From a virus (lineage: Duplodnaviria > Caudoviricetes): a stretch of DNA of 36,974 nt. The position numbers were made by a program, and so were the translations under genes. Shown here one piece after another: positions 8,602-36,974 of the stretch. Each line of letters starts with the position of its first letter. The first letter of the stretch is position 1. The notes under the pieces were generated by a model. It ran no database searches and was not told where the DNA came from. It saw nothing but the letters and a program-made list of their open reading frames with translations. Location of the stretch: IMG/VR virus record IMGVR_UViG_3300030613_000020, positions 1-36,974 of that record. One strand, 5' to 3'.

Positions 8602-8630
8602 AGATTATTCCAACCCTCGCGGCGTGTCAA
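8602..8630 (-). promoter_or_regulatory. Sigma70-type promoter for the replication genes
   Basis: TTGACA-N17-TAATCT followed by an RBS and ATG. Confidence 0.75.
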
Positions 8631-13521: not shown

Positions 13522-13807
13522 GACGCGCCTCTTCCGCGAAGTGGTCATATTCGCGTACCCTGTCGATAACATAGTCGCCTACGGGCACCGTTACGGCCCT
13601 GTGCTCTTGGTGCGTTACTGTCGCAACCCCCGACAGCACGCGGAGATAAAATGTGCCGTTACGCTCAAACAGTTCCACGTCACCCTCTGTAATTGTGTGG
13701 TGATGCCCAGTCGCTTCACCACGAGCGAGCGTTTTGTCCCTGCATGCCCTAGCATCTAGGGGAATCTGTGCAGACCGGATCAGAACATCTCCTTGTTGAA
13801 TAAGCAT
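13508..13807 (-). CDS. His-motif partner of the DUF6745-like protein
   Basis: QQGDVL, LARGEATGHHH, HQEH and REYD motifs; RBS GAGGAGG. Confidence 0.8.
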   Translation of the reverse strand: MLIQQGDVLIRSAQIPLDARACRDKTLARGEATGHHHTITEGDVELFERNGTFYLRVLSGVATVTHQEHRAVTVPVGDYVIDRVREYDHFAEEARRVAD

Positions 13808-14222: not shown

Positions 14223-14653
14223 TATTTCAAATCGTAAATCCTCGACGGGGGGATTATGTCGCTGACCACCTTAACAGCGATATTGGACAACCCCGACCAG
14301 TTGGGCACCTCGTCAGCCGTGCGTATGAGCCAGTAATACGTCCCTGGCACTACATCGCCCGTCCAGCTTTGCGTTGTGCCAGCAACTAGCGGTATGGGCT
14401 CCCCCGTGACTTGTGTTGCTGACGACCACCACGAAGCTGTATCGCCTAGCGCCGGGGCCGTTGTCTTGTAGCGCAAATCATACTGGCTTGCCGTGCCAAA
14501 TAGAGAATCGTCCCCGACACTTGTCCAAGTCAGAGTGATCGGCGCGGCCTCAGCGTGGATAGAAAGGCAAGGGCTCGAAACGAATAGAATCCACAGGAGC
14601 AAAACGAGGCCCAAACGGTGAATTTTCAAAGGGCATCTGAATCGCATCATCAA
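14222..14653 (-). CDS. Secreted fibronectin type III-like protein
   Basis: Signal peptide ending AEA; TLTWTSVGDD..GTASQYDLRY...YY..IRTADEVPNWSGLSN. Confidence 0.8.
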   Translation of the reverse strand: MMMRFRCPLKIHRLGLVLLLWILFVSSPCLSIHAEAAPITLTWTSVGDDSLFGTASQYDLRYKTTAPALGDTASWWSSATQVTGEPIPLVAGTTQSWTGDVVPGTYYWLIRTADEVPNWSGLSNIAVKVVSDIIPPSRIYDLK

Positions 14654-14915
14654 ACTCCTTTAACTCCCGGAAATGACCAAGAATGAAAAAGCAGGTTTGC
14701 TCTTGTGTGAATTTGCCGGCCTGTAGACCTTGCAGACACCGATTGAGAAACTCAATGTCTCTTTGCAATTCGGCTTCGCTTACCTCGCATCGCGTTCGCT
14801 CTGGTGCAATCCACCAACGTATTATCGGCTGGACTAATTCACGGCCATATTGTGGTGCAGCCTCACTGGCCGCTGCTATCAGAATCAGAGCCAGAAGGAT
14901 TAGGAGGAGTTTCAT
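14550..14915 (-). CDS. Secreted hypothetical protein
   Basis: MKLLLILLALILIAAASEA signal peptide; RBS GAGGT. Confidence 0.7.
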   Translation of the reverse strand: MKLLLILLALILIAAASEAAPQYGRELVQPIIRWWIAPERTRCEVSEAELQRDIEFLNRCLQGLQAGKFTQEQTCFFILGHFRELKEFDDAIQMPFENSPFGPRFAPVDSIRFEPLPFYPR

Positions 14916-21090: not shown

Positions 21091-21618
21091 CTACTTATAA
21101 TCCAGCGCGAATCTCCAAAAGAAAACCCCTTGCCAGCCCATCTTCTCTACGTATCGCACGCCGACACCCGTATCGACGTATTGCCCCATAGCGTCCGGCA
21201 TCGGAATTTGAAAACCAACCTCAGACTTAATACCCATGTAGCTTCCTTCCTCTAACCAGGAAACCGTGGGCCCGAGTGCGAATCTAATCTGTGGATCGTT
21301 GACGGCTTTGCCTTTCAGCACGTATCCGAACATCAATGAACTCGGAACAGAATTCCCACCTTCAGCATTCCAGGGCGGCGCTAGCTCCTGCTCCATGCAG
21401 ACACTCAATTTCCACGTATCGCCGAAGCGATAGTTAAAAGCAGCCTCGACGTTCGACTGATTGAGTCCCGACGGATCCGCCTGGCCGATGCCGCCGGTGA
21501 CTACGAGGCCGGTTCCCATGCCGAACTGTGCTGGACATTCGACTGGACAAAGGCAGGACGCAAACACGCCTATCACTAGGCTAAGTAAAAAGATAGGTAT
21601 GGACAATCTCATGGACAA
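21091..21618 (-). CDS. Secreted, outer-membrane beta-barrel-like protein in the lysis cassette
   Basis: Signal peptide; alternating amphipathic strands; aromatic-rich C-terminal strand FFWRFALDYK. Confidence 0.55.
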   Translation of the reverse strand: MSMRLSIPIFLLSLVIGVFASCLCPVECPAQFGMGTGLVVTGGIGQADPSGLNQSNVEAAFNYRFGDTWKLSVCMEQELAPPWNAEGGNSVPSSLMFGYVLKGKAVNDPQIRFALGPTVSWLEEGSYMGIKSEVGFQIPMPDAMGQYVDTGVGVRYVEKMGWQGVFFWRFALDYK

Positions 21619-21855: not shown

Positions 21856-22338
21856 TTATGCAGCAAAATCCCCGAAAATCTGATCCGGCGAAAGCTCGGG
21901 GTGTCCTCCTAGTGCAACTTCAATTGAATCATATCCATCCCCACGCTTCACGCGATGCCAATGCTCGCCAAAAGTCTCATCAATATCTGCGTGAATGAAT
22001 CGGCGCGGATAAATGATTACACGCGGGAAGGCCTGGATCGCAAAATTGAAAGCTGTCCAGATGCTTTTGTTCCGCAATCTAAAGTCCATCGCCAGCCCCA
22101 TCATATGTCTGCTTGCCCGTGCTCCGCTGACTTCGAGATTATGCTTAGGGCAGCGATAGCCTGAGTTCACATACACCGGCTCCTGTACGAGAAATCGAAA
22201 TCGCTCGGCGGCGTCGATCAACCCTTGCTCTACGTTCCACACCTGACAGCACGGACACATCATTTCAGCGACAGAGAAATGTGATCGTACGCCCTCGGAG
22301 GTCAGGAACTGTCCGCGTTCAATAAGCGCAAGCCCCAT
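21856..22338 (-). CDS. Endolysin, peptidase M15A family
   Basis: SGYRCPKHN, SRH..G.AMD and FIHAD motifs. Confidence 0.9.
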   Translation of the reverse strand: MGLALIERGQFLTSEGVRSHFSVAEMMCPCCQVWNVEQGLIDAAERFRFLVQEPVYVNSGYRCPKHNLEVSGARASRHMMGLAMDFRLRNKSIWTAFNFAIQAFPRVIIYPRRFIHADIDETFGEHWHRVKRGDGYDSIEVALGGHPELSPDQIFGDFAA

Positions 22339-22339
22339 C

Positions 22340-22576
22340 TTACTGCCCTTTCGCTATCCATGTGATAAGCCCACCAAGCGCGAGTATAGCTATGGTTCCG
22401 AGGATGCCCTTGAGCCAGCGGAGATCATTCTTGATTTCCGTGCAGATAGTTTCAACGCCGGTCAGGCGTTTTGTGTTTTCTTCGCCTTCGCCATTCAATC
22501 TTTCGAGATGTTCACGTATGGCTTTGATCGCCTCCCATACGCCTTGAAGTTCAAGTGATGTCGTAGTCAGAGTCAT
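22340..22576 (-). CDS. Coiled-coil plus C-terminal TM protein (XhlA-like lysis accessory)
   Basis: Domain layout and position before the endolysin. Confidence 0.55.
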   Translation of the reverse strand: MTLTTTSLELQGVWEAIKAIREHLERLNGEGEENTKRLTGVETICTEIKNDLRWLKGILGTIAILALGGLITWIAKGQ

Positions 22577-22609: not shown

Positions 22610-23212
22610 CTAAGAACATGCCCCTCGATAGAAATAAGCATAAAGTTCTTTCAGTTTCTTGGGCTGCAATATCCCTCCGGCGCCTCGTTGTCTAATCGGG
22701 CAGCTAACTCTAACCCGTTGAAACGGCGCAAGTATCTGCATGCCATTAGCTATGCTCGGGTTGCCAAGAATATATTGCGTTACAACGCTATCTGCCCCAG
22801 TTGCCGCATTGTAGGTAGCTGCGGAGAAATAGTCGCTATAGGTTCCCGCGATCCAAGTGGTTCCATCAAGACTATAATCTACCGCAAACCGCAAACTATC
22901 AATCACGGTATCCGCAACTGAGCGGAAAAAGAAAAGGCCAACCGTATCCTTTGGGTTTTCCGCAAACAAACCAGCTATCATAAATGCATTTGTCGTATCT
23001 ACATCAACCGTTGCAGTTGTAGATTCCGAAAGAACGCTTGTGTAAAGCGAATCTATACCGCTCAGCGGCCATGTCAATTGCCAGAGGCGCGTACATGGGC
23101 TTGGGCTGGAACGTAGAGCATTCGGGGCAACATCCTTCACCAACACCTTTCCGTATACCGCTGGAACACAAACGAGAGAAAGAAGAACGAAAAGGAGCAC
23201 AATCTTACTCAT
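22610..23212 (-). CDS. Signal-peptide-bearing beta-sandwich protein at the end of the tail module
   Basis: MSKIVLLFVLLSLVCVPAVYG; YSLDGTTW...RVRV motif. Confidence 0.75.
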   Translation of the reverse strand: MSKIVLLFVLLSLVCVPAVYGKVLVKDVAPNALRSSPSPCTRLWQLTWPLSGIDSLYTSVLSESTTATVDVDTTNAFMIAGLFAENPKDTVGLFFFRSVADTVIDSLRFAVDYSLDGTTWIAGTYSDYFSAATYNAATGADSVVTQYILGNPSIANGMQILAPFQRVRVSCPIRQRGAGGILQPKKLKELYAYFYRGACS

Positions 23213-23213
23213 G

Positions 23214-24221
23214 CTAAACCTCCACTACTTGAATGTGATAAACCAATCCCTGCCCTTTTTTGAAGGTACTGGGGTTTTGCGTTACTTGAAATTGTTTGCT
23301 TGCCCATGTTACCGTCCCGCCGTACTTCGGATATACCATATGAGTATCAACGTCGGCATCGAATGTGATTATGTGTCCTACGCGCAAATCCACGGCATTG
23401 TGAAACGTAGAAAAAGATGGACGGAGAACAGGCGCAGCGCGGTCGAAAATATAATTGCGCAATGCAACCGCTGAATCTTTATCCGCAATCCAGGGGAAAT
23501 CAGACTCAAATGTATTTTTCATTCCATAGGTGGTTTCTCGCGTTCCCGCATTCGTAACTCGCGTTCCATCCGTCCCACCCTCTCCGTCGTCACTCCCATC
23601 GGGTGAAATGAAAGCTGTGCGTAAGCACTTGTCTTGAGGTGCAAAGTAACGGTAATGGACATAGACGCGGGTGTAGATTTCGTCAACGGGTGTTTGCGAA
23701 AGCTCGAAAGGTGACTTTTGATCTATATGCGCATTCCAATTGAAAGCGGGTGAATAAATCTTTTCGGCACTAGGGCTAGATTGGTAGCATACCGCTTGCC
23801 ACTTCCCGTCTATCGGTGAACGATATACAAGAAGTCCAGGGCAATGTCTTTGCATTTCTACCCGCGCTTCGTCAACCGTCGTTTCTTCTGTCATAGAAAC
23901 GCAAAGTTTGTAATCGCCCGTGACAAGCGCATTCAAATCCGTTCGTGCCTGTATCCAGCTTCCAAGGGTTAGGTCGCCGTCTGTCGTGATATTGAAATCA
24001 TCGGCAGCCACAAGACCATTTCCCCGTTTCACCATAAGATGACGAATCACATCGGCGGGGTTTTCGATCAAGGCTCCATTTGTTCCCGTAAACGTGCCAG
24101 ACGTATCATCCTTCTGTGCTTTGTAGTTCCCGCAATACAAAAGACTCGGAGTCTGGTAGGTTGTCTTGTATTGCGGGATGGGAAGATTCCAAATGCCCGT
24201 TTTTATGTTGTAGAGCTTCAT
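23214..24221 (-). CDS. Tail tip / baseplate hub protein (C-terminal part-like)
   Basis: IENPADVIRHL and DLRVGHII motifs; tail context. Confidence 0.7.
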   Translation of the reverse strand: MKLYNIKTGIWNLPIPQYKTTYQTPSLLYCGNYKAQKDDTSGTFTGTNGALIENPADVIRHLMVKRGNGLVAADDFNITTDGDLTLGSWIQARTDLNALVTGDYKLCVSMTEETTVDEARVEMQRHCPGLLVYRSPIDGKWQAVCYQSSPSAEKIYSPAFNWNAHIDQKSPFELSQTPVDEIYTRVYVHYRYFAPQDKCLRTAFISPDGSDDGEGGTDGTRVTNAGTRETTYGMKNTFESDFPWIADKDSAVALRNYIFDRAAPVLRPSFSTFHNAVDLRVGHIITFDADVDTHMVYPKYGGTVTWASKQFQVTQNPSTFKKGQGLVYHIQVVEV

Positions 24222-24224
24222 CCC

Positions 24225-25568
24225 CTAACCCCTTATCTTCGGCCCAAAGGGTTGCAATACGACGCGCTTCCAGGGAAACTTTCCCATCCAGGGCAATCTC
24301 GTGACATCCGTTTTCAAATCATAACGGTTCCACAACGCCATCCCCGTTATCCTACAATAACCAGTATCGTCAACAAACTCTGCACGTAGCTCTAACGGGA
24401 ATTCGTTGCTTGATATGTCAACAACGACAAAGCGCCACTCGCGCCAATTGGCCAATAACGTTGTGATGCCGAGCAAATCATACTCGACCCCTGGCAATGC
24501 AATGGTTGTGCTTTGGTGATAGTCACTTGCCGCTACGTCCCAAAGACCATATTTTAGTGTTCCACTTGCGCTAGTATCATCCCAGTAGATGTAAACGGTG
24601 ATGCTGCCCAGAATTCCTGGATTCCCCGTGTTGGGAATCGTGAGACTTAATATTTGCGCATCCATGATTGCAGTGTATGTCGTATGGTTACGATCCATCG
24701 CCTTGGCAGGATCACTCGCCGTGTTGCCATCGCCGATGCCCGTAGGAATTACGCAAACTTCACCGTAAGGATTCTGGTCAAATTCCATCTCTACTTTTTC
24801 TATGCTATTTGTGGGGCTGGGATAGCCCAATTCTTTAAGCGTAGTTAATTCACCGAGTGCATCATCCCACAGACGCAATGGGTCTGTCCCAAGTGTATGC
24901 GCTGCGGACGTGCCGTCATTATCACATACACGGATGACGGGCCGCCCATGATCAGGGCCACTTTTATCAACACAGATTGCTTGTGCAACCGGCCAATGCT
25001 CCCCAAGTATTGGATACCCGGAATATGTTGCACCGGTGAAATCCCCATAATGAAGAGGTACTCGCCTTCCCATGTTGTCATCCGGCGCTTCGGGGAAAGC
25101 AGCTCTTTCGATCACCGTTGGCGGGATTGTGACATCCCACTTATACTGCTCGGTTAAGTTAAACTCAACTTCCGAATCGTCGTAGCGCGCAATCTCCGTG
25201 ATGTAGCCCTTGAAGAGTATCTGGCTTGTGCCTACGCCAACATGCCAGAGCGTGAATGTCACTGCTGCACCGGCAAAAGCGTATGTGCTTAAGACATCCC
25301 CGAATGTCTTTGCCGCTGTTGTCTGATAATTGAGCTTCCGATTCTGGACGGTGAACGATGCACTTAAGGGGGCAATCTCGCCCGTGAGAATATCAGCCCG
25401 CTGACCCGTGAGGCCGATGCTTACGAGCCTCTCTTCATAAACTGTGCCGCCATAAGTTGCGGCACGATCTGTGAGATAGAGCGTCCTTGCGCTTGGCTGT
25501 GTAAGTGCGATCTCACACAAAATTGCATAGTCCCCAAACTTCTTCCGTGCATCGTCTATAAAAGCCAC
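24225..25568 (-). CDS. Tail tip protein
   Basis: LFKGYI and FPEAPDDNMGRRVPLHYGD motifs; follows the distal tail gene. Confidence 0.7.
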   Translation of the reverse strand: MAFIDDARKKFGDYAILCEIALTQPSARTLYLTDRAATYGGTVYEERLVSIGLTGQRADILTGEIAPLSASFTVQNRKLNYQTTAAKTFGDVLSTYAFAGAAVTFTLWHVGVGTSQILFKGYITEIARYDDSEVEFNLTEQYKWDVTIPPTVIERAAFPEAPDDNMGRRVPLHYGDFTGATYSGYPILGEHWPVAQAICVDKSGPDHGRPVIRVCDNDGTSAAHTLGTDPLRLWDDALGELTTLKELGYPSPTNSIEKVEMEFDQNPYGEVCVIPTGIGDGNTASDPAKAMDRNHTTYTAIMDAQILSLTIPNTGNPGILGSITVYIYWDDTSASGTLKYGLWDVAASDYHQSTTIALPGVEYDLLGITTLLANWREWRFVVVDISSNEFPLELRAEFVDDTGYCRITGMALWNRYDLKTDVTRLPWMGKFPWKRVVLQPFGPKIRG

Positions 25569-25569
25569 A

Positions 25570-26355
25570 TTAGCACTCCACTAAGCGAAAACCCAAATTG
25601 TATCTATCGCACTCGGCCAGACTAGATTCCAACTCATCGCCCTCTACGTATACCATGTATGCAGGGTTGTAGTTGTCTGCGCTGTAATATTCGTCCGTGA
25701 ACCAGAAAGGTCTGTACCCTTCGGTGTATGTTTCGTCAAGCTCAGTGAAAATGTATGCGTAGTCGGTCGTGCGGGTGAGCTGTGTAAACTGCACGTCCCA
25801 CACTTTCTTTTGCGGCCCCCACTTTGTGGCGCGCATATAGCCGCCCTTGGTGTAGCTACGACTGATATTCTTGCGCTTCCCGCGTACAAGACCAAGACGC
25901 GGAGAGCGTGTTAGTGTTCGCACAAGACCGAAAAGTCCAATCTCACCAATCTGTACCACGGCATCTTGACCCGTAATGCCGACCCACCAATAGCGCTTGC
26001 TCACGCTATCAACACTTATCACGGCATCCTTGTTGCCAATTGCTCCACTTGTAAGTGCGGTATACGTCGTAAGCTCTGCCCACAAATCCGTTGACGTATC
26101 GGTCGATGAATACTTGACGGTGATACTCGCCGTCTGTATCCCTAGCGTATGTCGAGCAATACCAAAACCAACAACGGCTGCGGCTGCGGTCAGATCATAC
26201 CGCCACACGGTTGTAGCCGTTGTGTTGGGTTTACCTACTGTTTGCACGTCCTCGTCGCTCACGTTGACTAGCGGATAGCTTGCGTTCTCGGCTCCGTCCG
26301 TCACGGTGGGAGTCAAACCATAGATTCGATTATTGAGATATAACTTCCACGCCAT
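25570..26355 (-). CDS. Distal tail protein-like
   Basis: Directly after the tape measure gene; RYWWV, PFWF and C-terminal LVE motifs. Confidence 0.65.
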   Translation of the reverse strand: MAWKLYLNNRIYGLTPTVTDGAENASYPLVNVSDEDVQTVGKPNTTATTVWRYDLTAAAAVVGFGIARHTLGIQTASITVKYSSTDTSTDLWAELTTYTALTSGAIGNKDAVISVDSVSKRYWWVGITGQDAVVQIGEIGLFGLVRTLTRSPRLGLVRGKRKNISRSYTKGGYMRATKWGPQKKVWDVQFTQLTRTTDYAYIFTELDETYTEGYRPFWFTDEYYSADNYNPAYMVYVEGDELESSLAECDRYNLGFRLVEC

Positions 26356-28103
26356 TATGCGAGTCCTCTCGAAGCGCAGCGGGCAATAGCTTTCATGCCG
26401 CCACGAACAAGAAGCCAGTCCTCAACGCTTCGACTATCAAGCGCATGAATCGTAAAGTTGAAATTCGTAGTTCCGCCCGAGGGCGCCATTTTCCGTTGTG
26501 GCGTGACGCTCACATATTCCGTGCCGCGCTCGCCAGCAACAAACATCGTAGGGCGATTGACATAGCCCTGATAGCCTCCCTGAGCCGTGAAGAAATCCCA
26601 AAAGGTTTTTCCAACACCAAACCCCGAAAAAATGCCCTTGAGTGCGCTGAACACCGCAAATTGTGCTATCAATTGCGCAATCATTTGTGTTCCATAAGAA
26701 AGAATCGCATCGAAGAATGCCTTCCAATCCTTGAGGCCACTCATCAACCATGCATGAATGCCAGAGGTTAAGGCGCCCACGCTCCCACGGATTGCATCAA
26801 AGGCCCATTTCTGTTTACTGATCAGTCCTTCATAAAAGTTGTCAAAATCGCTCTTGATTGGTTCGAGAAGTTCCCGGATGTTAACGAGATCGGGTAATTT
26901 GCCGAACAAGTCTTTGATTGCCCTTTCAAACCTATCAATCGAAATGGGCCCCATGATAGCCTTGAAGAGCCAGTTACGACTTAGGGGCGGGTGACTAAGG
27001 AAAGATTTAATGGGCATCATGGCCTCGTTGATGAATACTTGGACTGACTCAGCAGCTTCCTTGCCAGCTTGCTTGGCCTTTGCTTTATCAAGACCCATGC
27101 GACTTACGAGTCCAGCAATATCTTTTTCAGTGATCGCGCCGCCTGTCGTTTTTCCAAGTGCTTCATCAACCCGTGGGCCAATTTCTATAATGGCCTTAAT
27201 CATTTCATCGGTGTAGGAACGAACAGCTTGTCTTGCGGCGGCAATCGCAGCTTCTTGCGGCTTACCAAGTCCACCTGCGAGGATTCCCCACAAGTCAAAA
27301 GCCTTCAGGGTTGCAAGAATGGTGTGTCGCTTGATGATTTCATTGTAGAAAGCATCTGTGTCCTGTCGTGCCTTTGCGATTTTGTCTGCATAAGGGGCTA
27401 GGACATCATTTACAACGGCCCCAACGTCCTCATAGATGTCTTTGAAAACTATGCTGAGATTCCTAAAAGCTCCGACGTTACCTTTGTTTGTTTCTTCAGC
27501 TGCGCCTTTGATATTCTGTTCATAATACTTTATCCAGAAGGCTGCCTTCTGTGTAGCCGTCGCATGTTCTCCAAGTTGCGCGGCAGCAGTACGCATGGTT
27601 ATGAATTGACGATTCATAAGCTCTATTTCGCCCATCAACGCAGCCGAAACCAACTTTGAAGCCATTGCTAAATCTAAAGTCTTTCTGCGAGCAACATCTA
27701 GTGCCATTGGCACAACCTTGAGAGCAAGGTCATAATCGCCAAGATTGTCAACAAGTTCAATCATGGCTTGAGCGGCCTGCTCATCCTCAAAGCCAGTCGT
27801 AACCTTGAGACGATCAAAATATCCTCGTAGCGAACCTTCGACTGCATCGTAACTCTTGCCTAGCGCCTCGACTTGAAATCTGAGAGCTTGATAGACTTGC
27901 TCCGATTCCAATGCTGCTTTGCTGGAAGTCCGGAGAAAGGTTACAATCTGATAGGCACCGAAGGCAACGCCAAGCGTAGCCGCCAATTTCTTGGCGCTAC
28001 CGATGACTCTATCGAAGCTCTGTTGACTTTCCGCGCTCACATGGTCGCGGTAGAAGGCATCGACATAGACATTAGCTGCCACTTGCCAATCCTCCAAGCT
28101 CAC
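26355..28103 (-). CDS. Tape measure protein (582 aa)
   Basis: Ala-rich helical protein; C-terminal AQGG.V.RPT...AGERGTEYV.V.P motif. Confidence 0.88.
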   Translation of the reverse strand: MSLEDWQVAANVYVDAFYRDHVSAESQQSFDRVIGSAKKLAATLGVAFGAYQIVTFLRTSSKAALESEQVYQALRFQVEALGKSYDAVEGSLRGYFDRLKVTTGFEDEQAAQAMIELVDNLGDYDLALKVVPMALDVARRKTLDLAMASKLVSAALMGEIELMNRQFITMRTAAAQLGEHATATQKAAFWIKYYEQNIKGAAEETNKGNVGAFRNLSIVFKDIYEDVGAVVNDVLAPYADKIAKARQDTDAFYNEIIKRHTILATLKAFDLWGILAGGLGKPQEAAIAAARQAVRSYTDEMIKAIIEIGPRVDEALGKTTGGAITEKDIAGLVSRMGLDKAKAKQAGKEAAESVQVFINEAMMPIKSFLSHPPLSRNWLFKAIMGPISIDRFERAIKDLFGKLPDLVNIRELLEPIKSDFDNFYEGLISKQKWAFDAIRGSVGALTSGIHAWLMSGLKDWKAFFDAILSYGTQMIAQLIAQFAVFSALKGIFSGFGVGKTFWDFFTAQGGYQGYVNRPTMFVAGERGTEYVSVTPQRKMAPSGGTTNFNFTIHALDSRSVEDWLLVRGGMKAIARCASRGLA

Positions 28104-28402
28104 GCGCTTTTACAAATCTCCGCACGCACGCTAGGGCCGTGACTTCCTCCAGCGTCAAATCGTTCATGCCGAAATTACATCCTGCATCGACAAAATCATT
28201 CAAGAAAAGCGCTCTCTCCGTCATGGGATCAATCCTGTCCTTTAACTCGCATTGGTCGCAGATGCGTTTCCAATCATCGGGGAAATCCAGTTTCGCCGGG
28301 CAAACATCACAGTTTCTGAAACGCGATTCCGCATGTGCCAAGTCCTCAAGATCATCTTGTACTTTCTTGGTGACATCACTCCGCAACCGTAAGTCGAAAA
28401 AA
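28072..28402 (-). CDS. Tail assembly chaperone, frameshift extension (T-like)
   Basis: Overlaps the chaperone end in the +1/-2 frame, has no good start of its own and precedes the tape measure gene. Confidence 0.65.
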
Positions 28403-28735
28403 CTGCGATACGAACTTCTCGAAATATGGAGCGTAGAAGGCATCCGCAATTAGGAGCTGCTTCCAGCCTTCAATTTCCATGATATTCACAGTTGTCTCAT
28501 CACCCCTTGTGAACTGTACTTGTGCATCAATGAGGAAATCAGCCGCAATGCCCAAGTAAAGTTCCTCTCGTTCACCCGCGTCGATGTTCTCCAATGCCCC
28601 GCGCTTCTCTGAAAAGGCAGCAAGCCCGTCCATGCGTTCCCGCGTTGTGGGACGCTTGAAGGTCAGCGACTCCGGCTGTCCATTCTCATTCAGGAAGCTG
28701 AGGACTATCGGCTTCCGTATCTCGCTCAGCGGCAT
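28376..28735 (-). CDS. Tail assembly chaperone (G-like)
   Basis: FKRPT..ER motif; lies between the tail tube and tape measure genes; RBS GGAGG. Confidence 0.75.
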   Translation of the reverse strand: MPLSEIRKPIVLSFLNENGQPESLTFKRPTTRERMDGLAAFSEKRGALENIDAGEREELYLGIAADFLIDAQVQFTRGDETTVNIMEIEGWKQLLIADAFYAPYFEKFVSQFFRLTVAE

Positions 28736-28910
28736 CGTGAACCTCCTTCACAAAGCTGTACCCAGGGTGATTTGCAAAAAGGTCTAGTGCCTCCTGCAAC
28801 TCGGTTTCAAATTCCCCGTTCTCGTCCGTAATGGCAATGATGCGTCCATCGGGGAACGTCACTGCCACATCACGAACATGCGTGCGCTCGACTCTGAATT
28901 TTGGCATCAT
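28686..28910 (-). CDS. Small tail-associated protein
   Basis: RBS AGGAG; operon context. Confidence 0.6.
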   Translation of the reverse strand: MMPKFRVERTHVRDVAVTFPDGRIIAITDENGEFETELQEALDLFANHPGYSFVKEVHDAAERDTEADSPQLPE

Positions 28911-28915
28911 TACTC

Positions 28916-30028
28916 CTACGAGGCAGCTGCATATTCGACGTTATCGCCATTCCAGTGATATGCCTTCACCGTCGGATTCGTACCATCGGCCTGCACCGTG
29001 GCCGTGCAATTGAGATATTGTGGCCCGTTCGCACCGCTACGATCCGCACTTTCGAGTTGCACTTTCGGAAACAATAGTTTCCATCCGTGATAATAACCCG
29101 TGGCGATAAGAGTGCCGGTCACACAACTCCACTCAAAACCGAAGGGGATAAAAGCCCCAGCATTGTTAAGACAATACTGTTGCACGGCGGCAGTTGTCGT
29201 ATTAAAATCGAGCACAAAAGTCAATGTCTGCGTTCGCCGTCCACGCGGGCATGAAGTACGCACGCCCGTCTCTGATGCGTTCGCCCCATATCCCTCATCG
29301 CCGAGAAGATAATTATCAATGATGTAATGTATCTCGCGCAGATGCGTTGAAAGCGCAAGCAACCCGCTGGCATCTAAGTCCGTGACACGAGTATTGGCGA
29401 CCGTAGGCAAGGCAACGCTGAACGCATCTTCAAGGAATCCCGTCGAGAGCCATGCAGCCGTGTTGCCGAAAAGATAATACTCTAGCGGCCCCGAGAGATT
29501 GGCTTCAGTTTGAGCCGAACCGTCATTGTAATCACCCCTCGGAATGAGATCGGCGGAAAACGTGACCCATCCTTTACGTGTGGCAGTAAGCTCAAATCTA
29601 TTCACCGTGCAGCCAGTCCATTGAAATGAACTTCCAGCAGTCGCATCTGCTGCTCCGATGCTATGCTGCTCATGGGTCAAAGAATATAGATCGGTCGTCA
29701 ATCCGGCTGGTGCTATGAGATGCTGATAGCAGGCCACACCGCCGAGGGTTGATTTCGTATCAGCACCCAAGGCAAAACTAAGAAGAAGCGGCATGAGTTT
29801 ATCGCTCGCCCAACCAGCGATTGGAATAGCTGCATCCTGTGCAAGAAGTCTTTTGGATGTTTCCTCTTCGTAGCCAACAGCCTCTTCCGTATCACTGTAG
29901 AAGACTGGTTTGGGCGTTCCCATCTCGTTGGTGAGATTGGCAACATGTGACAAATCCGTCAACGCTCCATAAGATGACTCTCGTTTGCGGCTGAAATAGT
30001 TCCTTCTTGTGATTCCTAGTTGTAGCAT
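28916..30028 (-). CDS. Major tail (tube) protein
   Basis: ESSYG N-terminal motif, GCTVNRFELT and FPKV; position in the module. Confidence 0.8.
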   Translation of the reverse strand: MLQLGITRRNYFSRKRESSYGALTDLSHVANLTNEMGTPKPVFYSDTEEAVGYEEETSKRLLAQDAAIPIAGWASDKLMPLLLSFALGADTKSTLGGVACYQHLIAPAGLTTDLYSLTHEQHSIGAADATAGSSFQWTGCTVNRFELTATRKGWVTFSADLIPRGDYNDGSAQTEANLSGPLEYYLFGNTAAWLSTGFLEDAFSVALPTVANTRVTDLDASGLLALSTHLREIHYIIDNYLLGDEGYGANASETGVRTSCPRGRRTQTLTFVLDFNTTTAAVQQYCLNNAGAFIPFGFEWSCVTGTLIATGYYHGWKLLFPKVQLESADRSGANGPQYLNCTATVQADGTNPTVKAYHWNGDNVEYAAAS

Positions 30029-30622
30029 TTAGATCGCCTCCTGACGATTCTCAACATCCTTAGTTACCGTGAGCGCAAGATATCCTACGCCCTTACTCTC
30101 CGATGTTCTTATGTCAATCCGGCCAGGGCCGACTGTAAGGCTCGTAGCCCCGGCCCAAAAACCATCACCGCTGATATTGCCAGCCCGTTGTCTGCACACT
30201 CGTTCAATTTCACTTAACCTCCGTTTTGTGTTGTTATCAAGATATGTGATATCGGTTGCTCCCTGTACACAAGCGATGAGAATATGAATGGGGATTGTAT
30301 AGACCCCAGCGGGCGAATCGGGCGAGTCCTCATCTTTCGCAAACGCATGGACAAAAATTGCTGGCATGGTATCCTGTGTCAAGCCTTCGAAGAGCGTATC
30401 GAAATCATCTTCCGTTATCGCCCGCGCCTCTATGTACTGTATGCCAGCATCGCCGCCGTCGCTTCGATGTGTGACTACGCCGGTCGTGGTGTTCCTCACA
30501 TATTCAGCCCTCAGATATCCGTCAGCGTCAAGAATCTCTACGATTGCATCCTCTGCATCATTGTAGAGATCGCTTTCATACGGTATCTCCGGCACTGGCA
30601 GAAAGCCGTCGTCAAATCCCAT
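30029..30622 (-). CDS. Tail terminator-like protein
   Basis: Acidic, PAIFV motif, immediately before the tail tube gene. Confidence 0.6.
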   Translation of the reverse strand: MGFDDGFLPVPEIPYESDLYNDAEDAIVEILDADGYLRAEYVRNTTTGVVTHRSDGGDAGIQYIEARAITEDDFDTLFEGLTQDTMPAIFVHAFAKDEDSPDSPAGVYTIPIHILIACVQGATDITYLDNNTKRRLSEIERVCRQRAGNISGDGFWAGATSLTVGPGRIDIRTSESKGVGYLALTVTKDVENRQEAI

Positions 30623-30640
30623 TGTTGCCTCTTCGCTTCC

Positions 30641-31561
30641 TCATTTTACCACCGTGCACCAAGCCGCAAGCCACGCGCCCTGTCTTACGGGCCGCACTGC
30701 ATACGTAGCACCCGAAGGGACGTAAACCGTGTAGCAACCGCTTCCATCTGTGCGGGCCCAGTATAGCACGGTAGATTTATCGCTGCTTAAGGCCACGATT
30801 ATAGCTACGTCTGCAATCGGCGTGCCCGAAAGCTTCACAGTATCGCAATCCGCTTGTGTGATCGCAGACCAGCCCGCATCACTCGCATGGGTATCAATAT
30901 CATATAGCCGCCCTCCGAAAGTCGTATCATAGACGCCCGAGTCCAATGCCTTGCCGATGCGATAGAGGATAACACTGTCTGCAATTGCCTTTGCATCCGC
31001 GCCTGAGATCGAGACTGAACCCGATGTCACAGTCTTCTCGGCTATTGTCTGAGCCCAGACCGAATCTGCAATAGCTGTGCGTTCGCCCGCTGTCAGCGTC
31101 TTTGCCGCCGCTACGGAGCCATCGAGGTTTCTGATGTTCCCATCCGCAGCGTGGAGCGAGTCTACAGTCCACGAGTCACTGGTTGCTACGACAAGACTCT
31201 GAATCGTAGTCCGATACTGCACCTCACCAAATCCATGGGTCGTGGAGCCACTACTTGCGTTGACCTTACCCCACACTCTGCCCGTTGTTGGAAGCCAGTA
31301 TCGTATTGTGCTTCCAGCCATGCCCGTACTGTCGTAGAGCGTCCCATTCATATAGAAATAGGCCTTGACCGTCGTTGGGTTTTGCGGCGAAGGCTGTGTA
31401 TCGTTCACCGCATAGTGCCAGATAAGCGTATCCGTTGGAGCGCATGGGCCGAGGTAGGCCCGCGCGGATTCACATCCCATACGCCCGAGCAACACAAGTC
31501 CTCCGACGGACAACGCCGTGAGCGCCACGAGCCAGACAATGCCTTGATGCTTTGGTCTCAT
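30641..31561 (-). CDS. Signal-peptide-bearing protein in the neck region (306 aa)
   Basis: ATGA-coupled start MRPKHQGIVWLVALTALSVGGLVLLGRMGCESARA; two AIADSV repeats; C-terminal TDGSG.Y Ig-like strand. Confidence 0.75.
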   Translation of the reverse strand: MRPKHQGIVWLVALTALSVGGLVLLGRMGCESARAYLGPCAPTDTLIWHYAVNDTQPSPQNPTTVKAYFYMNGTLYDSTGMAGSTIRYWLPTTGRVWGKVNASSGSTTHGFGEVQYRTTIQSLVVATSDSWTVDSLHAADGNIRNLDGSVAAAKTLTAGERTAIADSVWAQTIAEKTVTSGSVSISGADAKAIADSVILYRIGKALDSGVYDTTFGGRLYDIDTHASDAGWSAITQADCDTVKLSGTPIADVAIIVALSSDKSTVLYWARTDGSGCYTVYVPSGATYAVRPVRQGAWLAAWCTVVK

Positions 31562-32340
31562 TCGACATCTCCATATATCAGTTGTTTTCGTAGAGGCCAC
31601 ACGTCGGGACTGTCCGCTTTTATCTGTCCCCATGTGCGCTTTCGTTCGCCAGCCGTTGTTGTGTAAACTACGATATAAGGCTTATTCGTAGCATTGTTCA
31701 CGGTCGTAAAAGTTATTCGGTCTTGTAGGCTTACGGTGCATCCGCAGACGGCTGGAATCTCGTTTGAAGTCGTTGCAATCCGTATATCGTATGTGTGACC
31801 AGAGCCAGCCGTGATTGAATCCGAGGTCACTTTGAAACTAACCCATGATGCTGCCGTGAATTGTGATACCGGCCATTGACGCTTCAGAATTGTGCATCTA
31901 GCTGAATCAGTTCCTGCAAGTATACCACTACAACTTGGTATGCCGCCCAAGATACAGCAATCGCCCACGTAGACACCGATATTGGCATCGCCCGTGCAGG
32001 TTGAGACGAGCGAAGGAACGTAAATAAAAACTCTTGCACTATCAACTGGCTCGGTGATCGTATCCAGAACAAAGCTGAAAAACGCACGATCAAAAAGATA
32101 AACGGCGCTGACAAAACTCCGATAACCTGCATAGGCAGCCGCGGTATTGTATGTGGCTACCCAGTCACTAAAATTATCGCAAACATAAGCCTCATCTGCT
32201 CGCTCCAAGTATCCATCTCTATTATCGGTCGCATAAATGGTTGTGCTTGTCGCACTGCCCAGCGATGCCGTCAGACACAGCGTCAACAGGCAAGCCGCAG
32301 ACAAAATCAATATCACAACATAACCAACCCAGGTTTTCAT
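31558..32340 (-). CDS. Signal-peptide-bearing Cys-rich beta-sandwich protein with a TWGQIK motif
   Basis: Hydrophobic N-terminus, 8 Cys after the signal, DNRLRE/CBM96-like ends (DGY...VDSARV...NKPYIVV). Confidence 0.75.
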   Translation of the reverse strand: MKTWVGYVVILILSAACLLTLCLTASLGSATSTTIYATDNRDGYLERADEAYVCDNFSDWVATYNTAAAYAGYRSFVSAVYLFDRAFFSFVLDTITEPVDSARVFIYVPSLVSTCTGDANIGVYVGDCCILGGIPSCSGILAGTDSARCTILKRQWPVSQFTAASWVSFKVTSDSITAGSGHTYDIRIATTSNEIPAVCGCTVSLQDRITFTTVNNATNKPYIVVYTTTAGERKRTWGQIKADSPDVWPLRKQLIYGDVE

Positions 32341-32891
32341 TTTCCCATCCCTGTCTGCGCGATCATCTCATCAAGCCAGCCGTGAAAGGTTTGCTGCAAC
32401 GAAGGCTCATCCTCCGGCGCATAGATTTCACACACGGAACGCCGCTTGTGCTGATATTCTGCGTATCCAACCTTTGGGCCTATGCGCATACGTGTCACCG
32501 TCAAGCTTATCGGGCTCGACACCATACTGCGAAACATCTGTTGTGTATCACGCATGAGCCATGAACCAGGGGTCACGCGGCCACGCACACGTTTGCGGGC
32601 TTTGACTACGCCCTTGCCGTAGAGTTTTTTCACTCCACCCCAGGCTGGCACCAAAGCGCCGTCTGTCTTGCGGATATACTGATATTGAAATGGACGCCAT
32701 GTTATCCCGCGTGTAGAGCCACCCGTCGAGCCACGGCCAATCTGCATATACTTGAGTGTCTGCCTGGTTGCATACCAGCCAAACCAGCGCTTCAACGGTA
32801 CTCGCCCGTCTTTTGCGCGGGCACCAACGAGCTTAGCCTTCTGCTCTAGGTCGATTAGATTTACGCGAACTTCTATAGGTTCGTTAGCCAC
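32337..32891 (-). CDS. Virion morphogenesis / neck protein (Mu gpG-like)
   Basis: W.P..., LMRDT..M..S and IG....YAEYQH motifs. Confidence 0.75.
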   Translation of the reverse strand: MANEPIEVRVNLIDLEQKAKLVGARAKDGRVPLKRWFGWYATRQTLKYMQIGRGSTGGSTRGITWRPFQYQYIRKTDGALVPAWGGVKKLYGKGVVKARKRVRGRVTPGSWLMRDTQQMFRSMVSSPISLTVTRMRIGPKVGYAEYQHKRRSVCEIYAPEDEPSLQQTFHGWLDEMIAQTGMGK

Positions 32892-33546
32892 GTTCGAGCA
32901 CTCCCGTTCTTACCCCAAGGCGTTCAATCTCGCGCAAGCGCAGATAGCTATACTCATAACTCACATGAGTTGCGGCCTGCCCCAGGGTACTCAACCCGCG
33001 ATATACCCACGTGCGATGTGCAATGCTGTAGTAGATTTGAAAATCCCTGTTGTATTCGGTCGGGGTTGCAGGCGTCACAACTTCGACCGTCTCTGGTATG
33101 ATGTTCTTCTTTGTGAGTGGAGCTTCGTCTGTGTGAAGCGCTCCGCTATCCCCGCTGCCAAACACCAGGGCTTCACTTGTCACGCCTTCACGCGGAATGT
33201 CCCGCGTTTCATCATTGATTTCCTTAACAAGCTTGTCCGCCTCGTCCTGATAGTATTGAGCCAATGAATTGGGCTTTGTTCGGTTGGCCGCCGCAATCAA
33301 ACCAAAAAGAATCCACATCGTTCTACATACTGCAATTCTTTGCACTATCGGCGGCGTCGGAGGCGATGCAGCAATGTCGGGAAAGTCCAGATGATTCGGC
33401 AAGTCCGAATCGGTGATACGCGAGCCAGTGAGTATCTCTTCGAGCACAACCGCCTGTGTCAAGGAGGGCGGCAGATTGCCCGCAAACTCGGCAACCACCT
33501 TTGAATACGTTGTGTATGATGCGTTGCTAGAGCCTTCGACTGTCAT
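32884..33546 (-). CDS. Head-tail adaptor (Mu gp36-like)
   Basis: YTT...V, I......DS.L and TP.IV..IA pattern; ATGA-coupled start at 33546. Confidence 0.65.
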   Translation of the reverse strand: MTVEGSSNASYTTYSKVVAEFAGNLPPSLTQAVVLEEILTGSRITDSDLPNHLDFPDIAASPPTPPIVQRIAVCRTMWILFGLIAAANRTKPNSLAQYYQDEADKLVKEINDETRDIPREGVTSEALVFGSGDSGALHTDEAPLTKKNIIPETVEVVTPATPTEYNRDFQIYYSIAHRTWVYRGLSTLGQAATHVSYEYSYLRLREIERLGVRTGVLERG

Positions 33547-35939
33547 TGTAGTGGTATCGCCTTCCATGTTCCATGAATCTGCACGTAGAGCGTATCCCCG
33601 TCCGCGCTCGGCCACACGGGAACGTGTACATCGCGTTCACGAGGAACATTTGCCAATGCCGCCCCTGGCATATCGAATTGCACAAGAAATTTTCCCCCCG
33701 TCGGGAGCGTATGAGTATTGTCTGCATCGTGTATGAGCATCGTGACCTCTGTTGATAGATCGTATGCGAACACGGCCTCGGCCCCATTCTGCCAGCTCGT
33801 TCCAAAAGCATTGCGCAGGCCAATCAGAAGCGAATCATCGTTTGTACTGTATGAATAATTGCACATCGCCTCACCGATTATGAGCGGTTTGAGGCGTCCC
33901 CAAGTCCATAGGCGGCTGACATAAGAACTGCCGCTAAGGGGAGTCTGGCTTAATTGCCATTGTGGATCTGAAACGTAATAATGCATATCGTAGAAATCGA
34001 CACAGTTTGCTAATCTCTGAAACGTCCGAGTATGGCCAGTGGACTGACTAACCGTCACGGGATGTCTGTAGTCGTGCGCACGAATGGAATCATAGCAATC
34101 TTCAAAGAAGGAAATCATCTGACGAACGGTTCCATAACCGCTTGTTGTCATTGCTGCGGCTTCGTTCATCAGGTCGTATCCCACAAGCACGTCATTATCG
34201 GCATACCGGATTGCCAGCGAATCAATCATCTTGAGGTAGTTGGTTCGCATCGTGGTGTGTAATCCATCGAGCGCTTGCCACTGGAAATTTGATGGTAGTT
34301 CCGAATGAAAGCACTCTTCGGGGTATCCCCACCAATTGAAGATACTGAGCAGAACTTTGATACCTAAAGGTCTGCAAATATCATTGAGAAATGTGTCCAG
34401 ATGCCCGATATATGTCTGATTCCATGAGGAAAATCCCGTTGAATCGTTGAAAACTGTTGCTTGATCTAGCGCCCCGAAGACACGAATACAGTTGATTCCC
34501 ATGCCACGAATATAATTGAGGTCGGCCCGTATCGTTGTGCTATTCCAATATTCGGATAACCAGCCATAGGCGTCACTAGCACTACCAGCATTCTCATATC
34601 CAGGCAGAACATAGTTCGCACATTTGTAAGGGAGACCCATCGAGCCAACGGGAATCAGAGAATCGGCGGTCGCATATTCGATCATTACATCATCGATATC
34701 AAGCGTATCGTTTGGGCTCCTCACGCTGAATCCAACGGCTACCTTCGCCGTACCAACGGGGTAGTGAGATGGCAACGGGCCTACCTGCACATAGCGCGTC
34801 CAAGTATTTCCTACATACCAGTTGAGAACATCGGCACAATCCACACCACTTGAAAGCTCATCAATCTGGTTATGCGAGGCATCAAAGAAATGAATGAACG
34901 TACGCCCGAGAGTCCCACGAAAGTAGATGGAGAATACAAACATCTTGGTCGTATCAATGGCGATAAGAGTCGCTGGGAAAGCATACACAAGTTCTGATCT
35001 ATAACCGCCAGTACATGCTCCGTCGCTTCCTGTCGTGAGTCTAACGTAGGCATCGGCAGTGCCAGATCGTCCGCTAGTCGAATGCCAATAGAATTTACCA
35101 CCCGTACTCGTGCAGGTGGTGTCCCACAGAAACGGGGCTGCCGTGGAATCAAAAGTCCCGTTCTCGAAGCTTGGGTTTGGGCACAGATTTGTGGCCGTCG
35201 TGCAGAAAGCACCCGCCGTCCATGCCTGACGCAAATAAGGGGCACGCGTCGCATTGCCAAGCGCAACCGCTGGAGATTGAACGTAGCCTGTAGCTGCAAG
35301 TCCATTCACGCTATCAACAGCTAGACCACGCACACCAACACTCCCCGTTGCCGTGATATTGGGTGCCGTCAATCGCGTCCCTATCGTTGCGCTATCCGCT
35401 GCCAAGCCTCGGGTACCTGTCGTAGTATTGCTTTTGAGCTTTGCGGCTGTGATAATTGTTGCCGCCGTCACACTATCTGTAGCTATGCCACGGGTAGCAA
35501 TGTTCATCACCGTGGCACCTGTAGTTTCGTAGAGACCGCCGATCGCACCATTTACAACAAGCGTCTCGCCCGTTACAATCACAAAGCTACGTGTGTTCAG
35601 CGGATATCGTACCTGCTCGCTGTAATGCGCTGTCTGATAATTTGTGATCTCGATCCAGTAATAGCTATATGTATCGCTAAGAGTCAGCGCAAACGTGTAG
35701 CCGATTGTAGTCGTATCCGTGGTTGTACTCGTGTACGCAGTCTTGGAGTCCAGCGGATAGGCTGTGACCGTAGCCCCCTGTATCTTCTCCGCAATTCCAT
35801 CCTGATTATCGTCGAAGGTGAAACTATCGCGGTAGATAAACGTGCCAGCCCGGGCATCATTCTCGCAGTTAAGATAGATGGCGGCAGCGAAAACTACGAG
35901 AAAAAACAGGAGCGGCAGTATCCAAGTTCTTGCCCTCAC
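33543..35939 (-). CDS. Signal-peptide-bearing multidomain protein: repeat stalk, CBM-like domain and GH5-type glycoside hydrolase
   Basis: Signal ending ARA; NPSFENG...IDDVMIE CBM-like segment; DL..I..MGINCIRVF, YDLMNE, DFYDMHYY and KPLIIGE. Confidence 0.85.
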   Translation of the reverse strand: MRARTWILPLLFFLVVFAAAIYLNCENDARAGTFIYRDSFTFDDNQDGIAEKIQGATVTAYPLDSKTAYTSTTTDTTTIGYTFALTLSDTYSYYWIEITNYQTAHYSEQVRYPLNTRSFVIVTGETLVVNGAIGGLYETTGATVMNIATRGIATDSVTAATIITAAKLKSNTTTGTRGLAADSATIGTRLTAPNITATGSVGVRGLAVDSVNGLAATGYVQSPAVALGNATRAPYLRQAWTAGAFCTTATNLCPNPSFENGTFDSTAAPFLWDTTCTSTGGKFYWHSTSGRSGTADAYVRLTTGSDGACTGGYRSELVYAFPATLIAIDTTKMFVFSIYFRGTLGRTFIHFFDASHNQIDELSSGVDCADVLNWYVGNTWTRYVQVGPLPSHYPVGTAKVAVGFSVRSPNDTLDIDDVMIEYATADSLIPVGSMGLPYKCANYVLPGYENAGSASDAYGWLSEYWNSTTIRADLNYIRGMGINCIRVFGALDQATVFNDSTGFSSWNQTYIGHLDTFLNDICRPLGIKVLLSIFNWWGYPEECFHSELPSNFQWQALDGLHTTMRTNYLKMIDSLAIRYADNDVLVGYDLMNEAAAMTTSGYGTVRQMISFFEDCYDSIRAHDYRHPVTVSQSTGHTRTFQRLANCVDFYDMHYYVSDPQWQLSQTPLSGSSYVSRLWTWGRLKPLIIGEAMCNYSYSTNDDSLLIGLRNAFGTSWQNGAEAVFAYDLSTEVTMLIHDADNTHTLPTGGKFLVQFDMPGAALANVPRERDVHVPVWPSADGDTLYVQIHGTWKAIPLQ

Positions 35940-36043
35940 TTAACAACCTCCACGACACACAAGCTAGTAAGCAGAATAGCCACGAGCCACGGATAGATCG
36001 CAACAATCACTTCCAAGAGACCTCGCTTTCTCGAAGGTGAATT

Positions 36044-36069
36044 GCGGAGCGGGTATGATCCCGCCCCGC
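36044..36069 (-). terminator. GC-rich hairpin after the post-capsid gene (no U-tract)
   Basis: GCGGGGCGGG-AUCAUA-CCCGCUCCGC. Confidence 0.4.
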
Positions 36070-36081
36070 TCCCCGGTCCTC

Positions 36082-36675
36082 CTATTCGACCTTCTCGTAG
36101 TGACATACCCAAAGCCTAAAGCTTGCTATAGTTGTAGCCACCGAAACACCGTCCCAATGTTGAGCGATAAACCGTACCCAACGCCACATAGCCGAAGTAG
36201 GCATAGTGGCCGCCTCTACTAAGATATTGTGAGCCGTCCCAGTAGTAAATGTCGTGGCGGTTAATCCGACTGTTGGAAGCTGCGCAATGACACCCTTGGT
36301 CGTATTGACCGAAAACCAATTGGTATTATCAGGACTCCATTGCACCAGCACACCGATCGAATCATTAACGGCTGTTGCCGCAGCGAATGTAGCCATGAAT
36401 CCTAGAAATGCACTGGCCCCCATCGGCGTTATCCAATTCGATGCGTCGTAGACCTGTGATGTCTCCGGTAGACCCACCATTCCAAAGCCAGTGCTCCCAA
36501 CAAGCAGGGATACAACTTCGCTATCGGCCACCGCAGTTGTCCTGTCCTTGTGCCACATTATTTGTTGACATTTAAGCTCAGACTTGTTCGCGTTTCCGCC
36601 AGCCCCCGCTGCCAGGGCCATAGCCGGTGCAAGTAGGCACACGGCAATCAAAAGAGATATAAAAGTCCTTTTCAT
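36082..36675 (-). CDS. Signal-peptide-bearing beta-sandwich protein directly after the capsid gene (decoration-like)
   Basis: RBS AAGGAGG; MKRTFISLLIAVCLLAPAMALA; VQWSPDNTNW...RWVRF. Confidence 0.8.
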   Translation of the reverse strand: MKRTFISLLIAVCLLAPAMALAAGAGGNANKSELKCQQIMWHKDRTTAVADSEVVSLLVGSTGFGMVGLPETSQVYDASNWITPMGASAFLGFMATFAAATAVNDSIGVLVQWSPDNTNWFSVNTTKGVIAQLPTVGLTATTFTTGTAHNILVEAATMPTSAMWRWVRFIAQHWDGVSVATTIASFRLWVCHYEKVE

Positions 36676-36688
36676 GTCATGCACCTCC

Positions 36689-36974
36689 TTACTGCGTTAG
36701 CCACGGAACGATGAACTTATCGTTCAGGATGGCGGACCCGTCTTGGTACTTGGCCATGATCAAACGCCCGTGCCCCTTGGTCGGGATCTCATCAATCGTG
36801 ACCGTGAGCCCAGCTTGAGTACCGTGCACCATGCCCCTAGGGGCGGATACGATATTGTAATAGTTCGGTGCACTGTAGTAGACCTGAGTCGTGAAGATGA
36901 TAAACAGACCAAGCACCGTTGCCGGTCGGCCCGTCTCCATCCTGTTGCCGCTACCCACATAGGCTGCATCAACA
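36689..36974 (-). CDS. Major capsid protein, 3' part
   Basis: In frame with 1-802 through the terminal repeat. Confidence 0.85.
   Translation of the reverse strand, partial: VDAAYVGSGNRMETGRPATVLGLFIIFTTQVYYSAPNYYNIVSAPRGMVHGTQAGLTVTIDEIPTKGHGRLIMAKYQDGSAILNDKFIVPWLTQ
36721..36974. repeat. Terminal direct repeat, copy 2
   Basis: Matches 1-254 with 5 substitutions. Confidence 0.97.

Follow-up and report, generated by a model that had tools for sequence, protein, structure and literature searches.

Predicted export leaders on five proteins encoded among the virion genes of an uncultured long-tailed phage

Gene order of the late operon

We analysed five genes with signal-peptide-like N-termini that lie among the virion genes of the IMG/VR record IMGVR_UViG_3300030613_000020, a Caudoviricetes sequence of 36,974 nucleotides (the window, i.e., the whole stretch of DNA analysed). 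The record derives from an uncultured long-tailed phage (siphophage). Its ends overlap over 254 nt (249 identical, positions 1–254 vs. 36721–36974), and the window thus represents a circular phage genome that is complete at about 36.7 kb. The five mismatches of this overlap fall within the coat gene, two of them change Thr to Ile, and they are either population variants or assembly noise. All assigned genes are on the minus strand. The late genes follow the order terminase, SPP1-like portal, MuF-like protein, scaffold, coat, 36082, 33543, adaptor, and neck, then 31558, 30641, terminator, tube, chaperones, tape measure, Dit, and two hub genes, and finally 22610, an XhlA-like holin, and an M15 endolysin; the five genes in question are designated by their lower coordinate (Table 1). 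Coat, scaffold, adaptor, neck, terminator, Dit, and hub were named by position, without a family match.

Table 1. Features of the leader-bearing genes and their surroundings, in window coordinates.
Feature	Position	Strand	Remarks
Predicted exported jelly-roll protein, 197 amino acids	36082–36675	-	Predicted cleavage after Ala22; candidate capsid cement/decoration protein
Predicted exported fibre-like glycosidase, 798 amino acids	33543–35939	-	Long leader, predicted cleavage after Ala31; N-terminal domain, repeats, putative CBM (by eye), GH5
Predicted exported CBM96-like lectin domain, 260 amino acids	31558–32340	-	8 mature Cys; conserved C-terminal peptide
Predicted exported stalk-like protein, 306 amino acids	30641–31561	-	Conserved N-terminal domain (residues 36–157), variable D-S/T-rich repeats, variable C-terminal domain
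Predicted exported small beta-sandwich (likely jelly roll), 200 amino acids	22610–23212	-	Predicted cleavage after Gly21; final gene ahead of the lysis genes (xepA-like slot)
Major capsid gene, 3' end	36689–36973	-	5' part at 2–802 (circular genome); no leader; slot after portal, MuF-like protein, and scaffold; named by position
G+C-rich stem-loop without U tract	36020–36085	-	3' of gene 36082; -28.6 kcal/mol, z -2.89, 3/200 shuffles as stable
Hydrophobic open reading frame, 24 codons	35936–36010	-	Stop overlaps the start of 33543; read from the sequence
XhlA-like/holin gene	22340–22576	-	Directly after 22610; PF10779 E 0.0022, below cut-off
M15 endolysin	21856–22338	-	PF08291 E 3e-14

The first-pass annotation, made from the DNA letters, had described the five genes as built into the virion operon and had proposed that their products are exported and then attached to particles. 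All five open reading frames (ORFs) are present on the minus strand, and the ATGA coupling to core genes that it reported was found at the neck/31558, 31558/30641, and 33543/adaptor junctions. As regards features of morons, promoter-like sites were at chance level (19 found vs. 20.4 expected), the genes are coupled to core genes, and no integrase was found among the 47 ORFs scanned. As to its observation that an ordinary tail fibre gene is lacking, no Pfam or PHROG tail-fibre match was found among the 22 late ORFs. NCBIfam searches of 18 proteins gave nothing above cut-off. Searches for close relatives with the coat, tube, and 36082 genes matched only this phage or a partial copy of it, and tblastn of the coat and 33543 genes against cultured phages yielded no match.

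Leader peptides and start codons

Leaders were scored by a home-made rule that requires 10 uncharged residues with a mean hydropathy of at least 2.0 after a net-positive n-region; the cut-off was written before the scores were seen, but after the N-termini had been read by eye. All five leaders have a basic n-region, an uncharged hydrophobic h-region, and small residues at -3/-1. The rule flagged 10 of 54 genes, namely the five (scores 2.6–3.4) and five others outside them, and none of the coat, portal, terminase, neck, tube, tape measure, Dit, and hub genes. Its background in 14 core proteins was 41 of 3860 internal positions (1.1%). A Shine-Dalgarno (SD) sequence directly precedes the leader in four of the five genes (AGGAGG at 36675, GGAGG at 35939, GGAG at 31561, GGAGG at 23212); gene 31558 has none, and its ATG overlaps the stop of the neck gene. 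The single competing start, a TTG at residue 24 of 30641 preceded by GGAGG, is absent from all three homologues, in which the first start has retained its GGAG. True starts downstream of the hydrophobic segments, a possibility raised beforehand, are thus not indicated, as the first starts are backed by SD sequences or ATGA coupling. Leaders are kept in all four proteins that have relatives. Their form is conserved while their sequence drifts, in the 36082 family (10 of 11 homologues, 8 independent clusters) as well as in 30641 (3/3, hydrophobic leader with AxA site), 31558 (5/5), and 22610 (2/2 full N-termini).

Conserved leader form, correct starts, the Cys pattern of 31558, and a motif bias typical of non-cytoplasmic proteins (both described below) support export well, and, judged by sequence, the five proteins are very likely exported. 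Given the 1.1% rate at control positions, the conservation of leader form in four families and of SD-bearing first starts but not of the internal 30641 start, and the restriction of motif bias and conserved Cys to leader-bearing proteins, it is most improbable that the leaders are no export signals (wrong starts, chance hydrophobicity, or propeptides for a phage protease) and the proteins ordinary cytoplasmic virion parts. This alternative draws on the internal GGAGG-TTG start and on the home-made rule, which has false positives since it passes P0013, a 36082 homologue read as signal-less. It also draws on capsid proteins with predicted signal peptides that are thought to be cut by the prohead protease, as described in PMC10367356.

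The leaders of 36082, 31558, and 22610 are ordinary and short, whereas those of 33543 and 30641 have h-regions of about 18–19 residues followed by Cys-Glu ahead of the AxA site; they may therefore act as a membrane anchor or contain a non-canonical lipobox. These two proteins would then stay membrane-tethered, as an uncleaved anchor or non-canonical lipoprotein, and serve as surface adhesin and glycosidase, possibly on vesicles co-purifying with virions. We consider this unlikely. RMGCE is invariant in 4/4 homologues of 30641, but so is the AxA site ahead of the mature start, and while 33543 is coupled to a hydrophobic ORF of 24 codons, a canonical lipobox ([LVIFA][ASTVILG][GAS]C after the h-region) is absent from all five proteins.

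Lectin, stalk, and glycosidase genes

Homologues were found in three P22-like podophage contigs (G001, L011/L016, and L015), in which portal, coat, hub, and fibre were named. In all three, the homologues of 31558 and 30641 form a pair flanked by the head genes and the head–tail adaptor. The 31558 protein is CBM96-like in the Atlas (0.94 by features, TM score 0.57, CBM96 named by structure), without a Pfam match by hmmscan, and is 33–43% identical to its podophage homologues. Residues 1–170 of 30641 are 74–75% identical in the three contigs, with the leader kept, and the profile had no match in GTDB contigs. Within residues 36–157, 54–57 synonymous codon changes stand against 18–21 non-synonymous ones, an excess that indicates purifying selection on the shared parts; the last 32 codons of 31558 have 8–12 synonymous vs. 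8–11 non-synonymous changes. Between G001 and L015, portal, scaffold, and coat are near-identical and the 31558 alleles differ, with the C-terminal peptide kept. Such an allele swap over a constant peptide would fit a receptor-binding tip mounted on an invariant dock, and the peptide is a candidate docking tag. The idea that the TWG.IK tail of 31558 is a host sorting motif was rejected, as 0 of 270 host proteins in the loci fetched end in this way and the Trp is not kept in two of three homologues.

The GH5 domain of 33543 is above threshold (PF00150, E 1.5e-10, 41.5 bits vs. a cut-off of 23.5) and has the motifs of both catalytic Glu residues, acid/base and nucleophile (NEA at 592–594 and IGE at 688–690); the protein is thus a predicted enzyme. 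Three shaft-like RG(I/L)A.DS repeats are located at residues 150, 177, and 204.

A jelly roll after the coat gene

Gene 36082 starts 13 nt past the coat stop. A search among 1.84 billion representatives returned nine matches, and after removal of two long repetitive ones (P0010, P0014) and addition of four sequences the alignment held 11 homologues. The eleventh, P0013, has no clear leader and matches phrog_5707; we take it to resemble signal-less post-coat proteins. Sequence searches against the PDB gave no match, nor did the profile in 285 plus 206 genomes of candidate host phyla. The AlphaFold2 model is a single jelly roll (predicted local distance difference test, pLDDT, 64.5). Its best VIA-align match is the N-domain of XepA from PBSX (PDB 6i56; Z 8.2, root-mean-square deviation (rmsd) 3.1, 105 residues aligned), followed by the capsid cements of KHP40 (7dou; Z 6.8, rmsd 3.5, 112 aligned) and Pam1 (7eel_H; Z 6.2, rmsd 3.7, 119 aligned), with the cements tied with CBMs. 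Foldseek matched generic jelly rolls alone (TM score ≤0.44). The model thus defines the fold clearly, but not the family.

The 36082 protein resembles the KHP40 and Pam1 cements in fold class, size, and slot after the coat gene, although the Z scores of 6.2–6.8 are not specific, and differs from them by the leader in 10 of 11 homologues. Known jelly-roll capsid cements, Bbp16 of BPP-1 included, are cytoplasmic and have no leader. The stem-loop at the 3' end of gene 36082 is likely a step-down element that divides coat-level from low-copy genes, and the position of 36082 on the coat side suggests expression at coat level.

The gene before the lysis cassette

Homologues of 22610 (58–73% identity) lie directly before the lysis genes in two long podophage contigs. 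The nearest Atlas cluster is 94% viral (0.90) and the Atlas neighbours are 92–100% viral; the profile had no match in the 285 genomes. The terminal repeat of G001 (L005 3–518, L008 1–299) holds two slightly different copies of a 22610 homologue, which differ near the N-terminus. The motif DSxGxxW occurs both in the 36082 family and in 22610 (hhalign, 74% over 19 columns). The AlphaFold2 model of 22610 reached a pLDDT of 34, and the TM score of 0.44 to the XepA cluster in the Atlas derives from a weak model. The first-pass annotation had placed 22610 in the slot of a receptor-binding protein. Such a role is not evident, since the protein shares 58–73% identity with its homologues in podophages, whose tails are different, and occupies a PBSX xepA-type slot.

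XepA, with which we grouped YomS of SPbeta for comparison, is like 22610 in its gene slot between tail and lysis genes and in predicted export. It consists of two jelly rolls joined by a linker (279 amino acids) in a phage of a monoderm host, whereas the five proteins here are single domains with classical leaders (22610 has 200 amino acids). XepA is exported and absent from particles, and 22610, the least certain member of the set, may have a similar role in lysis.

The chief alternative for all five proteins is that they are exported late, target the infected cell or what surrounds it, and never become part of the particle: 22610 as a XepA-like lysis helper, others as Lom/Cor-like receptor blockers or released lectin decoys, and the GH5 protein as an enzyme that strips capsule so that progeny are freed. 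We consider this possible but less likely. The top fold match of 36082 is to a protein missing from particles, and the position of 22610 ahead of an XhlA-like gene mirrors that of xepA in the PBSX gene order. Lambdoid lom and cor, envelope genes inside the tail operon, are similar as co-oriented, leader-bearing genes within a late operon. Each differs in that it encodes one outer-membrane barrel or lipoprotein and belongs to temperate phages; the window, by comparison, has five proteins predicted to be soluble and of lectin, fibre, or cement type, and the scan of 47 ORFs for an integrase was negative, which also speaks against an envelope role. So do the fixed places amid head and neck genes with translational coupling, the fibre-type repeats, and the allele swapping. 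In favour of an envelope role, PMC10367356 and bioRxiv 10.64898/2026.10.24.761521 interpret phage genes with leaders as modifiers of the envelope.

Sharing between unrelated virion types

Proteins 22610, 30641, and 31558 recur at 33–75% identity in three podophages, in which none of 15 core packaging and virion queries had a match. The distribution found for 30641, 36082, and 22610 is viral, which argues against the possibility, considered in the first-pass annotation, of exclusively cellular homologues. Downstream of their ejection genes, the podophages have another two genes with leaders, one of which is a 31558 paralogue; in G001, a 31558 paralogue and a leader-bearing fibre-like gene share the C-terminal motif G..WYN....L.Y.DG. 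In the HK97-head siphophage G002, a leader-bearing protein of 185 amino acids without sequence similarity to 36082 is encoded between portal and coat. This G002 protein, rich in the putative O-glycosylation motif described below, is located at L010 13827–14384, and two further leader-bearing genes follow the hub (region 1092–1866). A glycosyltransferase-like gene (phrog_34859, E 3e-4) directly precedes the 31558 homologue in the podophage head operon (L008 13207–14616 in G001, and also in L015 and L016) and may bear on virion glycosylation.

Sharing across unrelated virion types suits a host-side partner, as the cell-directed alternative would have it. We had considered that sharing between siphophages and podophages rules out a virion role, and dropped this argument because the cultured Cellulophaga phages phi10:1 and phi18:3 show the same sharing.

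Precedent in cultured Cellulophaga phages

GenBank labels gp091–094 of the siphovirus phi10:1 (KC821618) and gp085–087 of the podovirus phi18:3 (KC821620) as 'structural protein' with experimental tandem mass spectrometry (MS/MS) evidence. Leaders are present on 4/4 and 3/3 of these, respectively, and on none of 14 other MS-annotated proteins tested (5 of phi10:1, 9 of phi18:3). Among 17 late proteins of phi10:1, gp092–094 and the endolysin alone match the 43 kb of phi18:3 compared. A siphovirus and a podovirus of one host thus share leader-bearing, MS-annotated proteins, which speaks against a purely cell-directed function. Common to both systems are leaders on late-operon proteins that occur in a siphovirus and a podovirus without a shared core gene in the part compared. 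The Cellulophaga genes differ in being clustered after the tail genes, whereas those of the window are spread over head, neck, and tail-end slots; their leader-bearing proteins also conform to the Gln rule of Bacteroidota. In phi10:1, the leader-bearing set comes directly after gp090, a small MS-annotated protein that lacks a signal and could be a cytoplasmic dock; no clear counterpart was found in the window.

A putative exported set of particle appendages

By analogy to the Cellulophaga phages, on which attachment to particles rests, we propose with a probability of roughly 0.55 that the five genes, known here from sequence, encode a portable set of Sec-exported appendages that is fitted to particles at lysis. 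The proteins would be made together with the virion proteins, 36082 at a coat-like level owing to its position upstream of the hairpin, and signal peptidase I would remove the leaders. Folding in the periplasm would give 31558 its disulfides and possibly add O-glycans at D-S/T-hydrophobic sites. The swappable lectin tip 31558 would dock via its C-terminal peptide onto the stalk 30641, 33543 would be a sugar-cutting fibre, and 36082 would coat the head. Holin and endolysin would bring heads and tails into contact with the exported parts, which would bind the particle surface and help the phage to attach to, or cut, host surface polysaccharide. We include under this explanation a mixed outcome, itself quite possible, in which 22610 acts at lysis and the others on the particle.

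The decoration or fibre character inferred in the first-pass annotation found support for four of the proteins, namely the 31558/30641 pair, 33543 (shaft-like repeats, GH5), and 36082 (position behind the coat gene and on the coat side of the hairpin, jelly-roll fold), while their attachment to particles is argued by analogy. Several observations weigh against the proposed attachment. Leader-bearing genes also occur outside the virion operon, and export alone is no mark of a virion protein. Proteins kept across unrelated capsids and tails need a docking partner, and none was found here. G001 retains a post-coat protein and a tail fibre that both lack signals, and the exported set is thus not needed as its sole appendage. 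The Atlas CBM96 look-alikes of 31558 are mostly bacterial, and a P0015-based search for loci of the 36082 family found none. The Cellulophaga evidence consists of GenBank notes, and co-purifying vesicle or periplasmic proteins are possible.

Tailed-phage particles are taken to be built wholly of cytoplasmic proteins, and in annotation a signal peptide counts as a sign that a gene does not belong to the virion. T4 Hoc and Soc, T5 pb10, and the P22 tailspike are appendages able to bind completed particles, even outside the cell; they differ from the proposed set in that they fold in the cytoplasm and each bind one specific core protein. The kinds of proteins found here and accessory binding to finished particles are known; the new element would be the route through the periplasm, of which we found no description in open-access literature text. 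The window adds a set common to a siphophage and podophages, a swappable lectin allele, and the motif bias. If true, phage morphogenesis would gain a further compartment through a set that matures in the periplasm and attaches after lysis; phages could then draw on the disulfide and glycan chemistry of the host, and the movement of these proteins between unrelated virion types would be accounted for. The proposal is directly testable in the two cultured Cellulophaga phages.

Cysteines and a putative O-glycosylation motif

The five proteins had been described as including several Cys-rich ones, with disulfides as the reason for export. This holds for 31558 alone, with Cys at 8 of 232 mature residues (3.45%) in a pattern kept in the two closer homologues; the other four have 1.1–1.7%, compared with 0.81% (range 0–1.6%) in core proteins, and disulfides do not account for their export. 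O-glycosylation, which the first-pass annotation had not raised, is a second candidate reason. The motif D-S/T-A/I/L/V/M/T marks O-glycosylated non-cytoplasmic proteins in Bacteroidota, according to PMC12871550. It occurs 32 times in the five mature proteins vs. 8.9 times in shuffles (3.6-fold, reached in 0/2000), 36 vs. 8.1 times in five podophage leader-bearing proteins, and 6 vs. 1.1 times in the G002 protein, but 8 vs. 15.1 times in 14 core proteins. Five control motifs were flat (0.72–1.23), and many motif sites hold alignment columns across homologues.

Other results argue against this interpretation. The 36082 protein alone is not enriched, and one conserved site is also present in P0013 and may be structural. 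The DUF6745 protein at 12538–13572, which is cytoplasmic, has tandem DSV-type repeats with 11 motifs. Host-side ratios in leader-bearing proteins are 0.67 (29 Zixibacteria loci), 1.21 (Eisenbacteria), and 0.94 (Ignavibacteria/Bacteroidota), from small and non-random sets of loci. The Cellulophaga leader-bearing proteins are depleted in the motif (0.31–0.46) rather than enriched, and the host of this phage is likely outside the Bacteroidota, in which the motif was described. Read from sequence, O-glycosylation is a lead, not a result. A broader scenario, in which phages of Zixibacteria-type hosts share an interchangeable set of glycoprotein cement, stalk, lectin tip, and glycosidase fibre that is routed through Sec for periplasmic O-glycosylation, is snapped onto long- or short-tailed particles at lysis, and cloaks the virion in host-type sugars, with assembly spanning two compartments of the cell, is speculative and rather improbable.

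Host assignment and other genes

The early gene 14222–14653 belongs to a family with 552 confirmed GTDB matches, and the best 75 loci of the 552 include 29 Zixibacteria and 12 Eisenbacteria. This distribution points to a likely diderm host of the Zixibacteria/Eisenbacteria group. No DNA shared with a host was found in the 285 plus 206 genomes of candidate host phyla. Three early genes at 13818–14915 are partly common to the podophages; 14550–14915 and 14222–14653 have leaders, and the third resembles, by eye, a detached C-terminal sorting domain.

The hub is apparently split over two genes (23214–25568), each half of which is weakly similar (E 0.001–0.002) to one 804-amino-acid protein of G002; no PDB relative was found for 24225–25568. 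After the lysis genes, 21091–21618 encodes a leader-bearing protein with a possible lipobox Cys and, by eye, the look of a small outer-membrane barrel, a candidate spanin substitute or exclusion protein, and the podophages have a different leader-bearing gene in this slot (L011 11402–11956). A C-5 cytosine methylase is encoded at 8605–9367, where a second ORF of 252 codons overlaps on the same strand in another frame.

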